DNA of 63,126 nt from an uncultured Muribaculaceae bacterium (GTDB taxonomy: Bacteria > Bacillota_I > Bacilli_A > RF39 > UBA660). A program made the translations under genes and the position numbers. The DNA lies in contig CAZTRF010000001.1 of NCBI GenBank assembly GCA_964616495.1, positions 3,759-66,884 on the forward strand, read 5' to 3'. This document shows positions 2,648 to 56,170 of the stretch, piece after piece. How positions within the stretch are numbered: the first letter of the stretch is position 1; every line of letters starts with the position of its first letter. Below the pieces are notes generated by a model. That model was not told the origin of the DNA. It did no database searches and saw only the letters and a list, made by a program, of their open reading frames with translations.

Positions 2648-2743
2648 GTTTTAAGGGCTTTCTTTAAAACCGCACTAAAAAGGTTTAAGCGATTATATCC
2701 ACCTTAAAGGCGTGTCTTACAAATATTAGAAGTGGAGGGAAAT
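2648..2743 (+). ncRNA. Probable L21 ribosomal-protein leader (autoregulatory 5' UTR)
   Basis: A roughly 95-nt untranslated leader lies between the strong promoter and the rplU RBS (GGAGGG). Firmicute rplU operons are known to carry a structured L21 leader. The structure was not verified here. Confidence 0.4.
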
Positions 2744-3046
2744 ATGAAAGCTATATTCGTTACTGGTGGTAAACAATATTTAGTTAGTGAAGGCGATACT
2801 ATCTATGTTGAAAAACTAGAGGGTGAAGCTGGAGCTAGTGTATCATTTGATGAAGTATTGTTTGTTGATGGAGTATCTGGAACACCTACTGTTAAAGGTG
2901 CAAAAGTTACTTGTGAAATAGTAAAACAAGGTAAACAAAAGAAAATTTTAGTGTTTAAATATAAACCTAAAAAGAAATATCGTTTAACTCAAGGTCATAG
3001 ACAACCATATACAAAGTTAGTTGTTAAAAAAATAGAAGTTAAATAA
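2744..3046 (+). CDS. rplU: 50S ribosomal protein L21
   Basis: The protein reads [25 protein letters not shown]...[22 protein letters not shown] 2744 follows a GGAGGG RBS; the GTG 2732 start in the ORF track overlaps that RBS. Confidence 0.95.
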
Positions 3047-3048
3047 TA

Positions 3049-3354
3049 ATGATTAAAATAATGGTAAAAGAAACTGATAATATTTTATCAGTGACTATTA
3101 AAGGACATGCTAATTATAGTAAAATTGGGACGGACATTGTCTGTGCTGGAGTAAGTAGCATTGTTACTACCACAATTAATGGTATTTTAAGTATTGATGA
3201 TAAATCGATTATTTATGAAAATAAAGAAGGTTTTGTTTCAATAGAAAATGTTAAACAGGATAAAATAACTAATGAATTATTAAATAATATGGTAAATATG
3301 TTTAGTGATTTAGAAAGTAAATATCCAAAAAATATACAAATGAAAAGAGGATAA
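3049..3354 (+). CDS. prp: Ribosomal-processing cysteine protease Prp (YsxB family)
   Basis: It lies between rplU and rpmA and carries the motif [20 protein letters not shown] (catalytic His/Cys pair). Confidence 0.85.
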
Positions 3355-3356
3355 TT

Positions 3357-3644
3357 ATGAAATTTTTAGAATTAAATCTTCAATTATTTGCTCACGTTAA
3401 ATCTCAAGGTTCTACACAAAATGGTAGAGATTCTGCTGGTCGTAGATTAGGAGCTAAAGCAGCTGATGGACAAACCATTAAAGCTGGTTCTATTATATAT
3501 AGACAAAGAGGGACCAAGATTTATCCAGGAAATAATGTAGGAATGGGTAAAGATCATACTTTATTTGCTTTAGTAGAAGGCGTAGTAAAATTTGAAAGAT
3601 TAGGAAGAGATAAGAAAAAAGTAAGTGTTTATCCTACAAAATAA
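3357..3644 (+). CDS. rpmA: 50S ribosomal protein L27 with N-terminal Prp-cleaved extension
   Basis: The N-terminus [26 protein letters not shown] carries the LQLFA propeptide cleavage motif. The core reads GRRLGAK...[24 protein letters not shown]. Confidence 0.95.
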
Positions 3645-13341: not shown

Positions 13342-13370
13342 TTGACAAATCCTTAATAATAAAGTAATAT
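13342..13370 (+). promoter_or_regulatory. Promoter upstream of the leader ORF / short RSH gene
   Basis: TTGACA (13342-13347), 17-nt spacer, TAATAT (13365-13370). Confidence 0.55.
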
Positions 13371-13400
13371 CAATTCAATACTTTTATTTAAGGAGATATT

Positions 13401-13484
13401 ATGAATAGATTAATGTGTACATTTAAAACCTATAAAATGATATGCAAAGATATTTGCTTAAATATTTATGATGAAATTAAATAG
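13401..13484 (+). CDS. 27-codon leader-like ORF (MNRLMCTFKTYKMICKDICLNIYDEIK)
   Basis: AAGGAG RBS 6-7 nt upstream of the ATG. The stop codon ends 1 nt before the base of the intrinsic terminator hairpin. It is not in the ORF track because it is under 60 aa. Confidence 0.35.
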   Translation: MNRLMCTFKTYKMICKDICLNIYDEIK

Positions 13485-13516
13485 ACTCAAACCAATTAAT
13501 TGGTTTGGGTCTTTTT
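13485..13516 (+). terminator. Intrinsic terminator/attenuator immediately upstream of the short RSH gene
   Basis: The 11-bp stem ACTCAAACCAA/TTGGTTTGGGT (one G-U pair) has loop TTAA and is followed by CTTTTTG. Only 16 nt separate it from ATG 13533. Confidence 0.65.
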
Positions 13517-13532
13517 GTTAGGAGTGATAGTA

Positions 13533-14957
13533 ATGAAAAAAGAGTTAATTAAATTAATAAGGCTTTATAATAATAATGAAGAAGAAATTAAAAAGATAGA
13601 AATGGCTTATGACTATGCAGAGCATGCTCATGAAGGAATGTATCGAGATAGTGGAGAGCCTTATATTACTCACCCTGTAGCAGTTGCAGTAATGCTTATT
13701 GAAAGACATGCCGATGCGGATACTATCTGTGCTGCTTTACTTCATGATACACTAGAAGATACCAAAGCTACTAAAGAAGAAATAGCTGATTTATTTGGTA
13801 GTGAAGTAGCTAAATTGGTTGATGGAGTTACTAAAATAACTAATTTTAATAATAAAACTAGTGATAATAGAGCAACTAAAAGAAAATTAATTACTAGTAT
13901 CAATGCTGATGTTAGAATTATCATCATTAAATTATTAGATCGTCTTCATAATATGAAAACCTTATCTTATAAATCTTTAGAAAGTCAAAAAAGAAATGCT
14001 ATGGAGACCTTAGAAATATATACTCATATAGCTAATTATTTAGGTGAATATGAGATTAAAGAACAATTAGAAGATCTTTGTTTAAGTTTTTTAAAAAGAG
14101 ATGAATATTTAAAAATAAAAGAAGAATTAGAAAGAATTAAATTAGATAGTACTGGTTCTTTAAAAGAAATGTATGATACCATTACCTATATATTAACTAG
14201 TAATGATATTCCTTGTGAAATAAAATATCGAGTTAAAAATATTTATGATATTTATCAAAAAGTAAGTAAAGGTGGTAAAATAATTGATATCCATAACTTA
14301 TTAGCTCTTAGAATAATTTTAAATAGAAGTTTAGAATGTTATATGGCTATGGGTTTAATTCATCAACAATATCATCCTTTAACAGGCCTTTTTAAAGACT
14401 ATATATGTAGTCCTAAAAAGAATGGATATAAAAGTATCCATACTACCGTTTTTGGCCCAAATGAAACTTTAGTTCAAGCTAGAATTAGAACTAAAGAAAT
14501 GGATTTAATTAATAACTATGGACTATCTTCATTTTGGTTTACTAAAGGGAATGAGGCCAGTAGTGAAATGCAAAGTACATTAATGAGAGAATTTCAGTTT
14601 ATTAAATCGCTAAGTGAAATAGATCATGAATGTTTAGATGATATAGAATTTGAACGTCAAATAAAAAAAGACCTTTTTTCAGGTAATATTTATGTGTGTA
14701 CACCTAATGGAGAAGTAATAGAATTACCAATAGAATCTAATTCAATAGATTTTGCCTATCATATTCATACTGATTTAGGAAATAAAATAATAAGAGCAAT
14801 TGTAAATGGAGAAGAAATATCAATATTTACTCCTTTAAAAGATAATGATATAGTAAAGATAATAACTGATGAAAATTCTTTAGGGCCCCACATTGGATGG
14901 ATTAATAAAGTTCATACAATTACCGCTAAAAGAAAAATAAAAGAGTTTGGAAAGTAA
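13533..14957 (+). CDS. Truncated long-RSH paralog (HD hydrolase + degenerate synthetase + TGS; no C-terminal ZFD/ACT)
   Basis: The hydrolase motifs are intact: HEGMYRDSGEPYITHP, LLHDTLEDT and DRLHNMKT. The synthetase block is recognisable (YRVKNIYDIYQKV, NGYKSIHTTV) but reads DIHNLLALR and VQARIRT where catalytic D and E are expected. The TGS domain is IYVCTPNGEVIELP...DFAYHIH. ATG 13533 follows a GGAG RBS; the TTG 13500 start in the track lies inside the terminator. Confidence 0.85.
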   Translation: MKKELIKLIRLYNNNEEEIKKIEMAYDYAEHAHEGMYRDSGEPYITHPVAVAVMLIERHADADTICAALLHDTLEDTKATKEEIADLFGSEVAKLVDGVTKITNFNNKTSDNRATKRKLITSINADVRIIIIKLLDRLHNMKTLSYKSLESQKRNAMETLEIYTHIANYLGEYEIKEQLEDLCLSFLKRDEYLKIKEELERIKLDSTGSLKEMYDTITYILTSNDIPCEIKYRVKNIYDIYQKVSKGGKIIDIHNLLALRIILNRSLECYMAMGLIHQQYHPLTGLFKDYICSPKKNGYKSIHTTVFGPNETLVQARIRTKEMDLINNYGLSSFWFTKGNEASSEMQSTLMREFQFIKSLSEIDHECLDDIEFERQIKKDLFSGNIYVCTPNGEVIELPIESNSIDFAYHIHTDLGNKIIRAIVNGEEISIFTPLKDNDIVKIITDENSLGPHIGWINKVHTITAKRKIKEFGK

Positions 14958-15012: not shown

Positions 15013-15798
15013 ATGAGCAAAAAAATAGTAGCTATAAGCGGTGGAGAAAATGGAAGATTATTAAAAAATGGTAAATTTTCACCATATGAAACTGAACTAA
15101 TGGATAAAGAAATTATAAAATTAACTGCTAAAGGAAAACCGAATTTCTTGTTTTTAGGTCATTCTCAAAGTTCTTCTTTAGAAATACAAGAAGGATACTT
15201 TCAAACAATGAAAAATATATATCAAGATAAGTTTGGATGCGTTTGTAAGGATTTAAAAAGTAATGAATTGGATGATATAAAGGTTGTAAAAGAAAAAATA
15301 GACTGGGCAGATATTATATATGAAGGTGGTGGTGATACACCGTCAATGATAAAATTATGGCAACAAAAAGGTTTTGATAAAATATTGAAAGATGCTTGGA
15401 ATAAAGGAAAAGTAATATGTGGTATTTCTGCTGGAGCTATATGTTGGTTTAAAGCCTGTAACTCAGACTTTATAGATAATAATGAATTATCTTTTGAAGA
15501 TGTCAGTTGCTTAAATTGGTTTAATGCTCATTTTACACCTCATTGTGATGAAAAAGGTAGATATGAATCAGCAAAAGAACAATTAAAAGAAAACAATTTA
15601 GTTGGTTTATTATTATCAAATTGTTCAGCCTTAGAAATAATAGACAATAAATACAGAATCATCACTAGCGATTCAAAATGGCATGAAATAAAAAAAGCTT
15701 ATGGAATTAAGGCCTATTGGGAAAATGACAAATTTATTGAAGAAAAAATAAAAATTTCAAATAATTTTGAAGATTTAGAAAAATTAATAAATAAATAA
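15013..15798 (+). CDS. Peptidase S51 (dipeptidase E-like) family protein
   Basis: YEGGGDT and the nucleophile-elbow motif GISAGAICW, with a later His (HFTPHCDE). Size is about 260 aa. Confidence 0.65.
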   Translation: MSKKIVAISGGENGRLLKNGKFSPYETELMDKEIIKLTAKGKPNFLFLGHSQSSSLEIQEGYFQTMKNIYQDKFGCVCKDLKSNELDDIKVVKEKIDWADIIYEGGGDTPSMIKLWQQKGFDKILKDAWNKGKVICGISAGAICWFKACNSDFIDNNELSFEDVSCLNWFNAHFTPHCDEKGRYESAKEQLKENNLVGLLLSNCSALEIIDNKYRIITSDSKWHEIKKAYGIKAYWENDKFIEEKIKISNNFEDLEKLINK

Positions 15799-22973: not shown

Positions 22974-24254
22974 ATGTTTATAGATGAATTAGTAATAAAG
23001 GTAACTGCTGGTAAAGGTGGAGATGGATGTACTTCTTTTCGTCATGAAAAGTATATTGAAATGGGTGGACCTGATGGTGGGAATGGTGGCAGAGGCAGTG
23101 ACATTATTTTTAAGGTTGATAAAAATCTTCGTACTTTGTTAGATTTAAAATATCAAAAGCATATTAAGGGAGATAAAGGTACTAATGGTGAAGGATCTAA
23201 TAAATATGGTAAAAGTGCTGAGCCAATTATTATTAAAGTTCCTGAAGGAACAACCATCACTGATATAGATACTAATTTAGTTATTTGTGATTTGGTATCT
23301 GACAAAGAAGAATTTGTTATATGTAAGGGTGGCAGAGGTGGAAAAGGTAATAAAGCCTATGCTACTAAGTTTGATAAAGCACCTAGAATGAGTGAATTAG
23401 GCGAACCAGGAGAAGAAAGATTAATTAAATGTGAATTAAAGGTTTTGGCGGATATTGGTTTAGTGGGATTACCCAGTGTTGGTAAAAGTTCAATATTATC
23501 ATTAATTAGTGCTTCTAAGCCTAAAATAGCAGCTTATCACTTTACCACATTAAGTCCTAATTTAGGAGTAGTAAAATTAAAAGATCATCGTGAATTTGTT
23601 ATAGCAGACCTTCCGGGGCTTATTAAGGGAGCTAGTGAAGGGATTGGCCTTGGAGATAAATTTCTTAAACATACTAGTAGATGCAAAATAATTGCCCATG
23701 TAGTTGATATGGGTAGTTCCGAAGGAAGAGATCCTATTTTAGATTATTTAGAAATAAATGAAGAACTTTCAAAATATAGTGATAACTTAAAAAATAAAAA
23801 ACAAATAGTTATTGCTAATAAAATGGATTTAGATAGTTCTAAAGAAAATTTAAAAAAGTTTAAAGCAAAATTTAAAGACTTAGAAGTTATTGAAATAAGC
23901 GCTTTATTTAATGTGGGCCTTGATGAAATGTTAAATAAATTTGCTAATACTTTAGATGAAATTAAAAATGAACCTTTATACCAAAAAGATGAATTTGAAG
24001 AAGAAATATTATATAAGTTCGAAGAAGAAAAACCCTTTGAAATAATTAAAGATAATGATGTTTGGGTACTAAAAAGTAAATTAATTGAAAAATTATTTAA
24101 AATGACTCGTTTTGATAATGAAGAAGCTGTTAAAAGGTTTGGTTTAAAGTTAAAAAGAATGGGTGTAGATAATGAATTAGAACACTTAGGAGCACATCCT
24201 GGTGATATGGTTCAAATATTAGATTATATGTTTGAATTTAAAAATGATAGATAA
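22974..24254 (+). CDS. obg: GTPase Obg/CgtA
   Basis: The glycine-rich Obg fold reads MFIDELVIKVTAGKGGDGCTSFRHEKY...GGPDGGNGGRGSDI. G motifs are GLPSVGKSS, DLPGLI and NKMD. A C-terminal OCT/TGS-like domain is present. Confidence 0.95.
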   Translation: MFIDELVIKVTAGKGGDGCTSFRHEKYIEMGGPDGGNGGRGSDIIFKVDKNLRTLLDLKYQKHIKGDKGTNGEGSNKYGKSAEPIIIKVPEGTTITDIDTNLVICDLVSDKEEFVICKGGRGGKGNKAYATKFDKAPRMSELGEPGEERLIKCELKVLADIGLVGLPSVGKSSILSLISASKPKIAAYHFTTLSPNLGVVKLKDHREFVIADLPGLIKGASEGIGLGDKFLKHTSRCKIIAHVVDMGSSEGRDPILDYLEINEELSKYSDNLKNKKQIVIANKMDLDSSKENLKKFKAKFKDLEVIEISALFNVGLDEMLNKFANTLDEIKNEPLYQKDEFEEEILYKFEEEKPFEIIKDNDVWVLKSKLIEKLFKMTRFDNEEAVKRFGLKLKRMGVDNELEHLGAHPGDMVQILDYMFEFKNDR

Positions 24255-54022: not shown

Positions 54023-56170
54023 ATGGAAAAAAATATAACAATTGATGATTTAATTTCTAAAATGGATGGTTTAGTAGAATCTAAAAAAGAATTAGATGAT
54101 ATTAATGAGGCTTATCTGTTTGCTAAAGAAAGTCACAAAGGGAAAAAAAGAAAAACTAACGAGGAATTTATTACTCATCCTTTGAATGTGGCTTATATTT
54201 TAGCTGGTTTAAATGTTGACACCAAAACAATAGTAGCTGCTTTATTACATGAAACAATTAATCATGGTTCTTCTACTTATGAAAGCATCTGTGATACATT
54301 TGGGAGTGAAATAGCTAATATAGTTTTATCTATATCTAAAATTAACAAATTAGAATTAACCGATGATTCAGAATCATCAAGTATTTATTTAAGAAAAATA
54401 TTGGTAGGACTTTCAGAAGATGTTCGAGTTTTGTTTATAAAATTAGCCGATCGCCTTCACAATATGAGAACTGTTTATGCGTTAACACCGGAAGAACAAA
54501 AGCAAAAGGCCAACGAAACAATGAAAGTTTTAATTCCCATTGCCCATCGTTTAGGTATTAATAAAATTAAAAGTGAATTAGAAGACCTATGTCTAAAATA
54601 TTTAAAACCTGATGTTTATGCCGATATTGAAAAAGAATTGACTAAAGGTAGAGCCGAATTAAATGAAGTTTTAAATGAGATGAAAGAAAATATTTCTAAT
54701 ATTTTAATTGATTATGGGCTTCGTTTTGAAATAAAAGGCCGCGTCAAAAGCATTAATAGTATATATGAAAAATTGGCTAAAGGGCGTAAATTTAGTGATA
54801 TATATGATATTTTAGCTTTAAGAATATTGCTTCCTAAAGAAAATGATTGCTATTTAGCGGTAGGTCTTATCCATGCCAAATATCGTCCCATTCCTAAAAG
54901 ATTTAAAGATTATATTGCTATGCCTAAAGAAAATATGTATCAAAGTCTTCATACAACTGTCTTTGGGATAGATGGTTATTTATTTGAAATTCAATTACGT
55001 ACATATGAAATGGATGAAATAGCCGAAAAGGGGATTGCTTCTCATTGGTCATATAAAGAATCTGGTACTCAAAAAATTCAAAATATGATGGAACAAAAGC
55101 TAGAAATGTTCAGAAATCTAATTGAAGCAAATAGTGATACTTTAAATGATGAAACCCTTACTAATATCTCTAATGAATATATTAGTAATTTAATTTATGT
55201 CTATACTCCTAAGGGAGATGTCGTAGAGCTTCCCGAAGGGGCAACACCAATAGACTTTGCCTATCGAATTCACTCAGGAGTAGGAGATACAATGGTTGGA
55301 GCCTTAGTTAATGATCAAATAGTTCCTCTAGATCATAGTCTTTCTGATGGCGATATAGTTAAAATTAGAATTGATAAAAACTCTCATCCTAAAGAAGATT
55401 GGTTAAAAATTGTTAAAACCACTCAAGCCAAAGATAAAATAAAAGCTTATTTTAGTAAACAAGATAAAATTGAATATATAAAAAAAGGGGAGCTTTTATT
55501 AGATAAGGAACTTAAGAAAAGAAAAATATCAGCTAATAGTATTTTAGATGAGGAAGCTTTAAACAAAATATTTAAAGGTTTAAAATTAAAAGATTTAGAC
55601 GATTTATATTTAGCTATTGGAACATTAAGATATTTACCTAGTTATATTATTGAATACAATTCAAAAGAAAAAGATGAGTTAAAAGATCCTTTACTTATGA
55701 GAAATAGAGGAACTATTCTTAAAGAAAAAATTTATAATGGCAATATTATAGTAAGTGGCTGTGATGATATAAAAGTAACTATTGCTAATTGTTGCAAACC
55801 AGTTAAAGGAGACACCATAGTAGGATATATTACAAAGGGTCGAGGAGTAAGTGTTCATTTAAAAGATTGTCCTAATATTAGTAGTAACGAAGACCGCTTT
55901 ATTGATGTTAAATGGAATGAAGAAAATGATAACTTTTATTATACTGATGTTACTATTGAAACTGATTCTTTAAGTGATCATTTAATGGAAATAATTAGTA
56001 AGACTGGCCAAAAAGAAGTATTTATTGAAAGCATTAATAAAAAAGAAATAGAAAATGGAATTAATTATACTTTAACGGTCAAACTTAAAACTTTAAAAGA
56101 ACTAAACAGTTATCTTCTAGACTTAGAAAAACTAAACTATATTAAAAAAGTAGGGAGGACAAATAAGTGA
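54023..56170 (+). CDS. relA: Full-length RelA/SpoT homolog with intact synthetase and degenerate hydrolase site
   Basis: Synthetase motifs are GRVKSINSIYEKL, DIYDILALRILL, ENMYQSLHTTV, FEIQLRT and ASHWSYKE. TGS (VYTPKGDVVELPEGATPIDFAYRIH), ZFD (CCKP...GYIT.GRGVSVH..DC) and ACT-like domains are present. The HD-domain motifs read LLHETINHG and KRKTNEEF in place of LLHD..EDT and R.SGEPY. Confidence 0.9.
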   Translation: MEKNITIDDLISKMDGLVESKKELDDINEAYLFAKESHKGKKRKTNEEFITHPLNVAYILAGLNVDTKTIVAALLHETINHGSSTYESICDTFGSEIANIVLSISKINKLELTDDSESSSIYLRKILVGLSEDVRVLFIKLADRLHNMRTVYALTPEEQKQKANETMKVLIPIAHRLGINKIKSELEDLCLKYLKPDVYADIEKELTKGRAELNEVLNEMKENISNILIDYGLRFEIKGRVKSINSIYEKLAKGRKFSDIYDILALRILLPKENDCYLAVGLIHAKYRPIPKRFKDYIAMPKENMYQSLHTTVFGIDGYLFEIQLRTYEMDEIAEKGIASHWSYKESGTQKIQNMMEQKLEMFRNLIEANSDTLNDETLTNISNEYISNLIYVYTPKGDVVELPEGATPIDFAYRIHSGVGDTMVGALVNDQIVPLDHSLSDGDIVKIRIDKNSHPKEDWLKIVKTTQAKDKIKAYFSKQDKIEYIKKGELLLDKELKKRKISANSILDEEALNKIFKGLKLKDLDDLYLAIGTLRYLPSYIIEYNSKEKDELKDPLLMRNRGTILKEKIYNGNIIVSGCDDIKVTIANCCKPVKGDTIVGYITKGRGVSVHLKDCPNISSNEDRFIDVKWNEENDNFYYTDVTIETDSLSDHLMEIISKTGQKEVFIESINKKEIENGINYTLTVKLKTLKELNSYLLDLEKLNYIKKVGRTNK

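Follow-up and report, generated by a model that had tools for sequence, protein, structure and literature searches.

Why would a member of the Bacilli carry two genes for long-type RelA/SpoT homologues (RSH), one of them cut short? It is textbook knowledge that Beta- and Gammaproteobacteria divide (p)ppGpp synthesis and degradation between two paralogous long RSHs, and bacteria of the Firmicute type are assumed to depend on a single bifunctional Rel. The question arises in a 63,126-nucleotide stretch of contig CAZTRF010000001.1 (assembly GCA_964616495.1; GTDB lineage Bacillota_I; Bacilli_A; RF39; UBA660), hereafter the window, which contains a short RSH gene at 13533..14957, encoding 474 residues, and a full-length Rel paralogue at 54023..56170, encoding 715 residues, both on the forward strand. 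We consider it probable that the short RSH is a hydrolase-only enzyme descended from an old duplication of Rel, that the long Rel is confined to synthesis, and that production of the hydrolase is controlled through a leader and terminator. An initial annotation had described the short protein as a SpoT-like, hydrolase-only enzyme, a description supported by its sequence, its phylogeny, and published mutagenesis of homologues; that reading left out that the short form is a family, that the hydrolase site of the long copy has decayed, and that the TGS domain and its histidine are retained.

The hydrolase residues of the short RSH are all intact. R38, Y44, and H47 lie within YRDSGEPYITHP; H71, D72, E75, and D76 within LLHDTLEDT; and D136 and N140 within DRLHNM, so that the motifs are canonical, as first annotated, with every residue present. 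Residues of the synthetase domain were assigned from a HMMER alignment to Bacillus subtilis Rel (6yxa), which places N255 (AAC, 14295-14297, forward strand) at D264 and Q315 (CAA, 14475-14477, forward strand) at E324, the equivalent of E323 in RelSeq. The two acidic positions proposed to have become amides are thus Asn and Gln when aligned properly with B. subtilis Rel, and no Asp or Glu takes their place. Further substitutions are R317 for Q326 (Q325 in RelSeq), L286 in place of the Arg of RFKD, T337 for Y346, and F334 for H343, the last agreeing with the reported change of His to Phe in the AHW.YK motif. R233, K235, Y299, and H303 of the synthetase domain are still present. The full-length copy reads DIYDILALR and FEIQLRT, as annotated, and also ASHWSYK. 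Among 112 long RSH representatives, the Asp is found in 112, E..Q in 110, and HD..ED in 111; with catalytic residues so nearly universal, the substitutions in the short RSH are not chance. The D264G variant of B. subtilis Rel is inactive in synthesis and has raised hydrolysis (PMC7797070). By its sequence, the short RSH is predicted to be able only to destroy (p)ppGpp (hydrolase-only, [Hs]), a prediction that these residues support; it would be monofunctional, its active HD domain serving as a Mn-dependent (p)ppGpp 3'-pyrophosphohydrolase.

Pfam searches identified three domains in the short RSH, all encoded on the forward strand: an HD_4 hydrolase domain (13605..14045; residues 25-171; 130 bits), a RelA_SpoT domain corresponding to the pseudo-synthetase (14229..14546; residues 233-338; 91 bits versus 132.6 bits for the long copy), and a TGS domain (14688..14867; residues 386-445), with nothing on its C-terminal side. 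The protein scores 506.2 bits against TIGR00691 (spoT_relA; cut-off of 499.2) while covering only profile positions 1-448 of 687. Its closest solved structure is 6yxa (E-value of 1.4e-108), and the alignment spans residues 8-473 and ends at Rel residue 481, just beyond TGS in the first helix of the helical domain. The chain indeed stops soon after TGS, 29 residues past it. From the C-terminal set of long RSHs (TGS, helical, zinc-finger/CC, and RRM/ACT domains), the short RSH has TGS alone; the proposed absence of a regulatory C-terminus therefore holds for the helical, zinc-finger, and RRM/ACT part and fails for TGS, which is itself a regulatory region. Within TGS, H412 corresponds to H420 of B. 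subtilis Rel, the tRNA-contacting His, and is invariant in both of our alignments (A1 and A2). Having three domains, the short RSH is distinct from small alarmone hydrolases, which are defined by a single HD domain.

We rejected an assembly artefact, a frameshift, or a recent pseudogene as the source of the truncation: homologues stop at the same point, with tails of 0-14 residues. The next gene begins only 55 nt downstream, so no remnant of a C-terminal tail lies behind the short RSH. An AlphaFold2 model built from a 75-sequence alignment has a pLDDT of 91 and pTM of 0.86, and its N-terminal half superposes on the N-terminal domain region (NTD) of Staphylococcus aureus Rel (7oiw) with a TM-score of 0.96 and RMSD of 1.5 Å, which indicates that the synthetase fold is kept despite its lost chemistry.

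What the retained fold might do bears on how the enzyme works. In the core of the family, the synthetase-fold domain is nearly as conserved as the HD domain (73% versus 78% identity), which argues that it is retained for a reason, presumably structural or regulatory. Most nucleotide-contacting residues are also kept in the family (R and K of RxK, D264, Y308, H312, and Q325), with only the Glu lost, and the window protein keeps the four named above. The domain could on these grounds bind nucleotide (ATP, GDP/GTP, or pppGpp) as an allosteric sensor, or catalyze a different reaction. The window protein, however, additionally lacks the Asp, the Gln, and the Arg of RFKD, and we know of no RSH that works without the acidic pair. 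Acinetobacter baumannii SpoT, with comparable losses, does not bind GDP (PMC9974481). We regard a sensor or a new activity as unlikely, and favor a role in which the dead synthetase-fold domain, together with the connecting helices and TGS, would act as a scaffold. Core and TGS scaffold the HD active site in A. baumannii SpoT (PMC9974481), and B. subtilis Rel needs its synthetase fold, linker, and TGS for appreciable hydrolysis: deletion of RRM and the zinc-finger domain (ZFD) raises hydrolysis, and the NTD alone is nearly inactive (PMC7797070).

The short RSH belongs to a family. A search of 5.8 billion proteins yielded more than 100 proteins of 474-485 residues with the same three domains and 51-56% identity, mostly from gut metagenomes. 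All 119 close homologues read V/I-Q-x-Q-I/V/M-R-T, with Gln at the position of the catalytic Glu, and all 119 have intact HD motifs; the Asp equivalent to D264, lost in the window protein, is kept in nearly all of them. When homologues were clustered at 50% and the best 150 representatives were considered, 35 were of at most 560 residues and were counted as short. Every one of these 35 keeps HDxxED and 31 lack the Glu; the four that retain it may be fragments of long Rels or belong to another lineage. Several short representatives share the substitution of Arg for Gln, or of Asn for Asp. The window protein fits the family profile (approximately 470-500 residues; HD, synthetase fold, and TGS; Glu replaced; placement inside the short clade). 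The order in which the family occurs consists of gut Bacilli with genomes of 0.6-1.6 Mb, and 139 of its 301 sampled genomes have at least two RSH matches at E ≤ 1e-30; among the 150 matches listed, about half lie in open frames of 452-520 codons. Several genomes (G092, G161, G097, and others) carry two or three short RSH copies besides the long Rel. A separate scan with generic patterns returned ordinary long Rels at 78 of 80 loci and short forms only at L056 and L070. In full-text literature searches, we found no published description of the short RSH family, and none of a split pair or of a truncated, hydrolase-only Rel in bacteria of the Firmicute type.

The origin of the family was addressed with a careful maximum-likelihood tree of 67 rows and 476 columns, from which the longest branches were left out. 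All short forms make up one clade (support 100/100). Its sister clade comprises the long Rels of the order (95/98), and the pair is placed inside Bacilli with joint support of 100/99. A quick tree of all 94 rows agrees with this topology. Because the short clade is sister to the order's own long Rel, the short RSH family dates from a Rel duplication that took place no later than the base of the order, and we rejected horizontal transfer from a distant lineage on the same grounds. The short RSH also occurs alongside an intact long Rel, for example in two other genomes of the order (G005 and G008), so that the duplication came first and the hydrolase of the long copy decayed later, in one sub-lineage that includes the present genome. 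Along the way, the helical, zinc-finger, and RRM tail would have disappeared from the family, as would the catalytic Glu.

The long Rel of the window bears this decay. Its synthetase site is intact (D262, E322, Q324, and H341), and its hydrolase site is changed at F49 for Tyr, E77 for Asp, and N80-H81 for Glu-Asp: the protein reads KRKTNEEFITHP where the consensus is xRxSGEPYIxHP, and LLHETINHG where the consensus is LLHDxxEDT. The HD domain is also its most diverged domain relative to relatives with intact sites (51% identity, versus 61% for the synthetase and 66% for TGS). In A. baumannii SpoT, substitution of Y51, E82, D83, or N147 abolishes hydrolysis (PMC9974481). Lacking the Tyr and the Glu-Asp on which hydrolysis depends, the long Rel seems limited to making (p)ppGpp, and is predicted to be a RelA-like, synthesis-only [hS] enzyme. 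Since the long copy has lost hydrolase catalytic residues, the two genes look like a reciprocal pair, RelA-like and SpoT-like, as opposed to a bifunctional Rel with a spare hydrolase. In such a pair, the long Rel would make (p)ppGpp as RelA does, and the short RSH would be its sole remover, like a hydrolase-only SpoT. We found just these two genes with RSH synthetase or hydrolase domains in the genome (1.0 Mb, 93% complete), and no gene for a small alarmone synthetase.

A long Rel that is still bifunctional, with an active HE..NH site, would make the short RSH merely an auxiliary hydrolase with no true division of labor. The long Rel retains R43, H52, H76, D143, and N147, and the change of Asp to Glu at position 77 is conservative; moreover, LLHETINHG is conserved in seven related genomes, which places the segment under some constraint, and four genomes with a decayed site (G001, G018, G021, and G023) show no separate hydrolase gene. 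Nevertheless, of the four positions at which substitution abolishes hydrolysis by A. baumannii SpoT, three are changed in the long Rel (Tyr, Glu, and Asp), at a site where HD..ED is otherwise near-universal among long representatives. A single clade of 16 rows (support 95/93) groups the long Rels whose motif has decayed, apart from a separate case in G009, and within the clade the motif drifts to unrelated sequences (HELDLN, HEIQAKT, HEGITLD, HDVTRTD, HDVFKYG, and GWLPVHIE), as expected once catalysis is lost. When 26 genomes of the order were classed by the hydrolase site of their long Rel (16 decayed and 10 intact), a short RSH or a separate HD-domain open reading frame (ORF) matching the hydrolase region was present in 12 of the 16 with a decayed site, compared with 3 of the 10 with an intact one; as these are related genomes with about two independent decay events, the counts describe a pattern and are not a test. 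One of the 12 partners, a small ORF of approximately 190 residues in G009, is interrupted by stop codons. On balance, we find a bifunctional long Rel improbable and the reciprocal pair the better account.

The HD-domain ORFs other than short RSHs are either small (approximately 190 residues) or fusions of HD to a P-loop domain (AAA_28) of approximately 440-650 residues. In five loci (L165-L169, from G011, G022, G024, G015, and G004), the fusions have an N-terminal RSH-type HD domain (HP..., YLHDVxEDT) and a C-terminal P-loop (GTPRTGKT; Pfam AAA_28 in the one that was scanned), and they occur mostly in genomes with a decayed long-Rel hydrolase and without a short RSH. These fusions may represent another kind of free-standing alarmone hydrolase. 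Two further RSHs were encountered. A full-length protein of 766 residues in the metagenome-assembled genome 'bacterium isolate FW021_bin.48' (L068) has an intact LHDVVEDT and LSTRIKT in place of xExQIRT, and may be another hydrolase-only long RSH in an unrelated lineage. A second RSH of 683 residues in a genome of the same class (L051, G026:C1:1235200-1239400) has an intact synthetase site and an N-terminal region that does not align with the HD motifs.

With the tail that binds the ribosome absent from the short RSH, its control is probably exerted elsewhere, and the region upstream of the gene suggests where. The gene starts at the ATG at 13533, preceded by AGGAG at 13520, 8 nt upstream. Ahead of it, an intrinsic terminator (hairpin and T-tract, 13483..13519, forward strand; 13-bp stem at 13483-13512; -17.2 kcal/mol) ends 13 nt before the ATG. 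A longer frame from a TTG at 13500 was considered as the start and is not credible, as this codon falls inside the terminator hairpin. The hairpin opens on the TAG stop codon of a 27-codon leader ORF (13402..13485, forward strand), which is preceded by AAGGAG and encodes MNRLMCTFKTYKMICKDICLNIYDEIK, with three Cys. Further upstream, a consensus scan found a promoter-like site, TTGACA-17-TAATAT (13342..13370, forward strand; 10 of 12 matches). Such sites are equally frequent in shuffled sequence of this AT-rich DNA and thus are weak evidence alone; TTGAC-type boxes occur at the same place in homologous loci. Terminator-like sites numbered 3 in the scan versus 0.6 expected. Since a promoter would not fit between the terminator and the gene, read-through of the terminator is required for every RSH transcript. 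Rfam gave no match in 13342-13532 at the gathering threshold.

This arrangement is characteristic of the short form. In a comparison of 37 short-RSH loci, drawn from many genera, with 37 loci of long Rels, a hairpin and T-tract 17-37 nt before the start codon was present in 35 of the former and 4 of the latter, and a hairpin combined with a Shine-Dalgarno-led small ORF in 31 versus 0. In these 31 loci the small ORF ends 27-64 nt before the RSH start, and in 29 of them, as computed from the distances, its stop codon falls at or within the 5' part of the hairpin window. The leader peptides are unlike one another in sequence. Cys nevertheless makes up 7.0% of residues in 32 leaders, versus 1.2% in window proteins and 1.9% in antisense frames; Cys is present in 29 of the 32, with a median distance of 15 codons to the stop.

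The anatomy of leader and terminator is observed directly, and from it we infer the direction of control. A ribosome reaching the end of the leader shortly behind the polymerase would block the hairpin, and the hydrolase would be made; a ribosome slowed by starvation, at the Cys codons or generally, would let the terminator form. A second layer is possible by analogy with B. subtilis Rel, in which tRNA inhibits hydrolysis via H420 of TGS (PMC7797070): the retained TGS His may let deacylated tRNA inhibit hydrolysis by the short RSH directly.

Several observations weigh against the account given so far. Truncating A. baumannii SpoT at the corresponding position (1-454) impairs its hydrolysis, in vivo at least (PMC9974481). 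Foldseek matched the whole short RSH model to 6yxa and 7qpr at TM-scores of 0.6-0.68 but with RMSDs of 13-15 Å, such that the predicted arrangement of domains along the whole chain fits no solved state well. The long Rel retains metal ligands H52, H76, E77, and D143, plus N147, and residual hydrolysis by it is possible. The genome is 93% complete and in 77 contigs, so a third RSH or another hydrolase gene could be missing. Folding of the nascent leader did not reveal an antiterminator; the 5' arm of the terminator stays unpaired. The window short RSH is on a long branch (1.0 substitutions per site), and the gene looks unstable in its genus: it is absent from three genomes of the same genus (G001, G002, and G004), and a fourth (G003, L045:1492-2655) has a paralogue of 388 residues with HD_4 and RelA_SpoT and without TGS. 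In this paralogue, too, D264 is replaced by Asn, E323 by Gln, and Q325 by Arg, and turnover of the hydrolase partner in the genus seems to be quick.

The long branch and the instability also raise the prospect that the window short RSH has lost its function and is decaying toward loss. No other member of its clade is as divergent, and it has 52-56% identity to its nearest homologues; it has lost more synthetase residues than the rest of the family (N255, R317, L286, and F334); and the genus's four other species, just described, either lack it or have a shortened form. Against this, the gene has an uninterrupted frame of 474 codons behind a good ribosome-binding site, it retains all catalytic residues of the hydrolase as well as the TGS His, and the leader and terminator are intact. 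Moreover, HD is the best conserved domain (56%, versus 46-49% for the synthetase-fold, Core, and TGS regions), the model is confidently predicted, and the gene encodes the only intact hydrolase site in the genome. We judge decay to be the least plausible of the alternatives, and a working hydrolase the far better reading of the gene.

The short RSH lies in the interval between rpmA and obg. On the upstream side are rplU-ysxB-rpmA (2732-3644), with an L21 ribosomal-protein leader ahead of them (2658-2727; Rfam RF00559, 40.7 bits), and obg is at 22974..24254 on the forward strand; rpmA and obg are approximately 19 kb apart, with mixed genes between them, the short RSH included. The gene 55 nt downstream of the short RSH encodes a peptidase S51 (15013..15798, forward strand). 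The terminator scan found none between the two, and they are probably co-transcribed. A weak S51 match follows the short RSH in L139, and an S66 peptidase in L035 and L037. In the relative G005, obg directly follows the short RSH. The genes right after the short RSH vary by genome (loci L006-L008, L035-L036, L042-L046, L056, and L136-L164), often across gaps of just -4 to 20 nt. Aminoacyl-tRNA-synthetase-type genes account for 7 of the 20 next genes scanned (Pro/Gly-type class II, His, Arg, Tyr, AlaRS core, and a 341-residue class II D/K/N core); others encode Obg, PFL, CorA, S66 or S51 peptidases, YcaO-nitroreductase, an archaeal-type AdoMet synthetase, and PAPS reductase. The unit of leader, terminator, and hydrolase seems to head varied operons. 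A broader picture, which we offer tentatively and hold to be possible rather than probable, is that the order has independently re-invented the RelA/SpoT split and shifted starvation control of the hydrolase away from the protein itself, with a Cys-rich leader and a terminator, in place of a ribosome-binding tail, tying hydrolase synthesis to translation, with possible inhibition through TGS and tRNA, and with the module heading varied operons, often of the aminoacyl-tRNA-synthetase type.

Among known systems, one of the two closest parallels is the SpoT[Hs] of Moraxellaceae, exemplified by A. baumannii SpoT (7QPR; PMC9974481), which likewise combines an intact HD domain with a dead, retained pseudo-synthetase and is paired with a synthetase-only RelA[hS], as the short RSH stands beside a predicted [hS] long Rel. 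The substitutions differ, as the catalytic Asp and Gln of A. baumannii SpoT are replaced by Ser and Thr. It also keeps the whole C-terminal region (helical, zinc-finger, and RRM), whereas the window protein ends after TGS. Moraxellaceae SpoT stems from the proteobacterial RelA/SpoT duplication and the window protein from a separate duplication inside Bacilli; the short RSH matches A. baumannii SpoT with an E-value of 1e-60, versus 1e-108 for B. subtilis Rel. E. coli RelA[hS] resembles the long Rel of the window in being full-length, with an intact synthetase, a pseudo-hydrolase, and a second gene for (p)ppGpp removal. The window long Rel differs in belonging to the Bacilli Rel lineage and in that its HD metal ligands are still present, with mainly the Tyr and Glu-Asp lost.

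The other lies within Bacilli: RshC[HS] of some B. cereus-group strains is, like the short RSH, a divergent second Rel that is cut in the helical domain and keeps TGS. RshC lacks CC and ACT, was reported from six strains only, is listed as [HS], and has an origin called ambiguous (Atkinson, Tenson and Hauryliuk 2011, PMC3153485); our comparison with it is by published description. The scan with generic patterns gave only canonical long Rels in Bacillaceae. Jimmy et al. (2020) mention 13 long-RSH subfamilies, which are unnamed in the text. Small alarmone hydrolases (Mesh1, RelH, pbcSpo, and others) are, like the short RSH, stand-alone enzymes that balance a separate synthetase, but consist of a single HD domain of approximately 180-200 residues, whereas the short RSH keeps the synthetase fold, linker, and TGS. 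Engineered B. subtilis Rel variants (D264G, and deletions of RRM and ZFD; PMC7797070) come near it in another way: their synthesis is inactive or compromised, their hydrolysis is raised, and tRNA inhibits via TGS. Those are artificial, single changes in a bifunctional enzyme; the short RSH combines both types naturally, and its family, unlike the engineered variants, is also without most of the helical domain.

Genes of these kinds are currently annotated as bifunctional synthetase/hydrolase or GTP pyrophosphokinase, names that probably fit neither partner. If uncultured bacteria that form a large group, common in human and animal guts, have split the two functions a second time and independently, this outcome is repeatable. 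It would also be a natural experiment on which domains a hydrolase-only RSH needs: those that are kept (HD, the dead synthetase fold, linker, and TGS) are the ones found to be important for hydrolysis in A. baumannii SpoT structures and in B. subtilis Rel truncations. Finally, the conserved leader and terminator suggest a way in which these bacteria may tie removal of the alarmone to translation.

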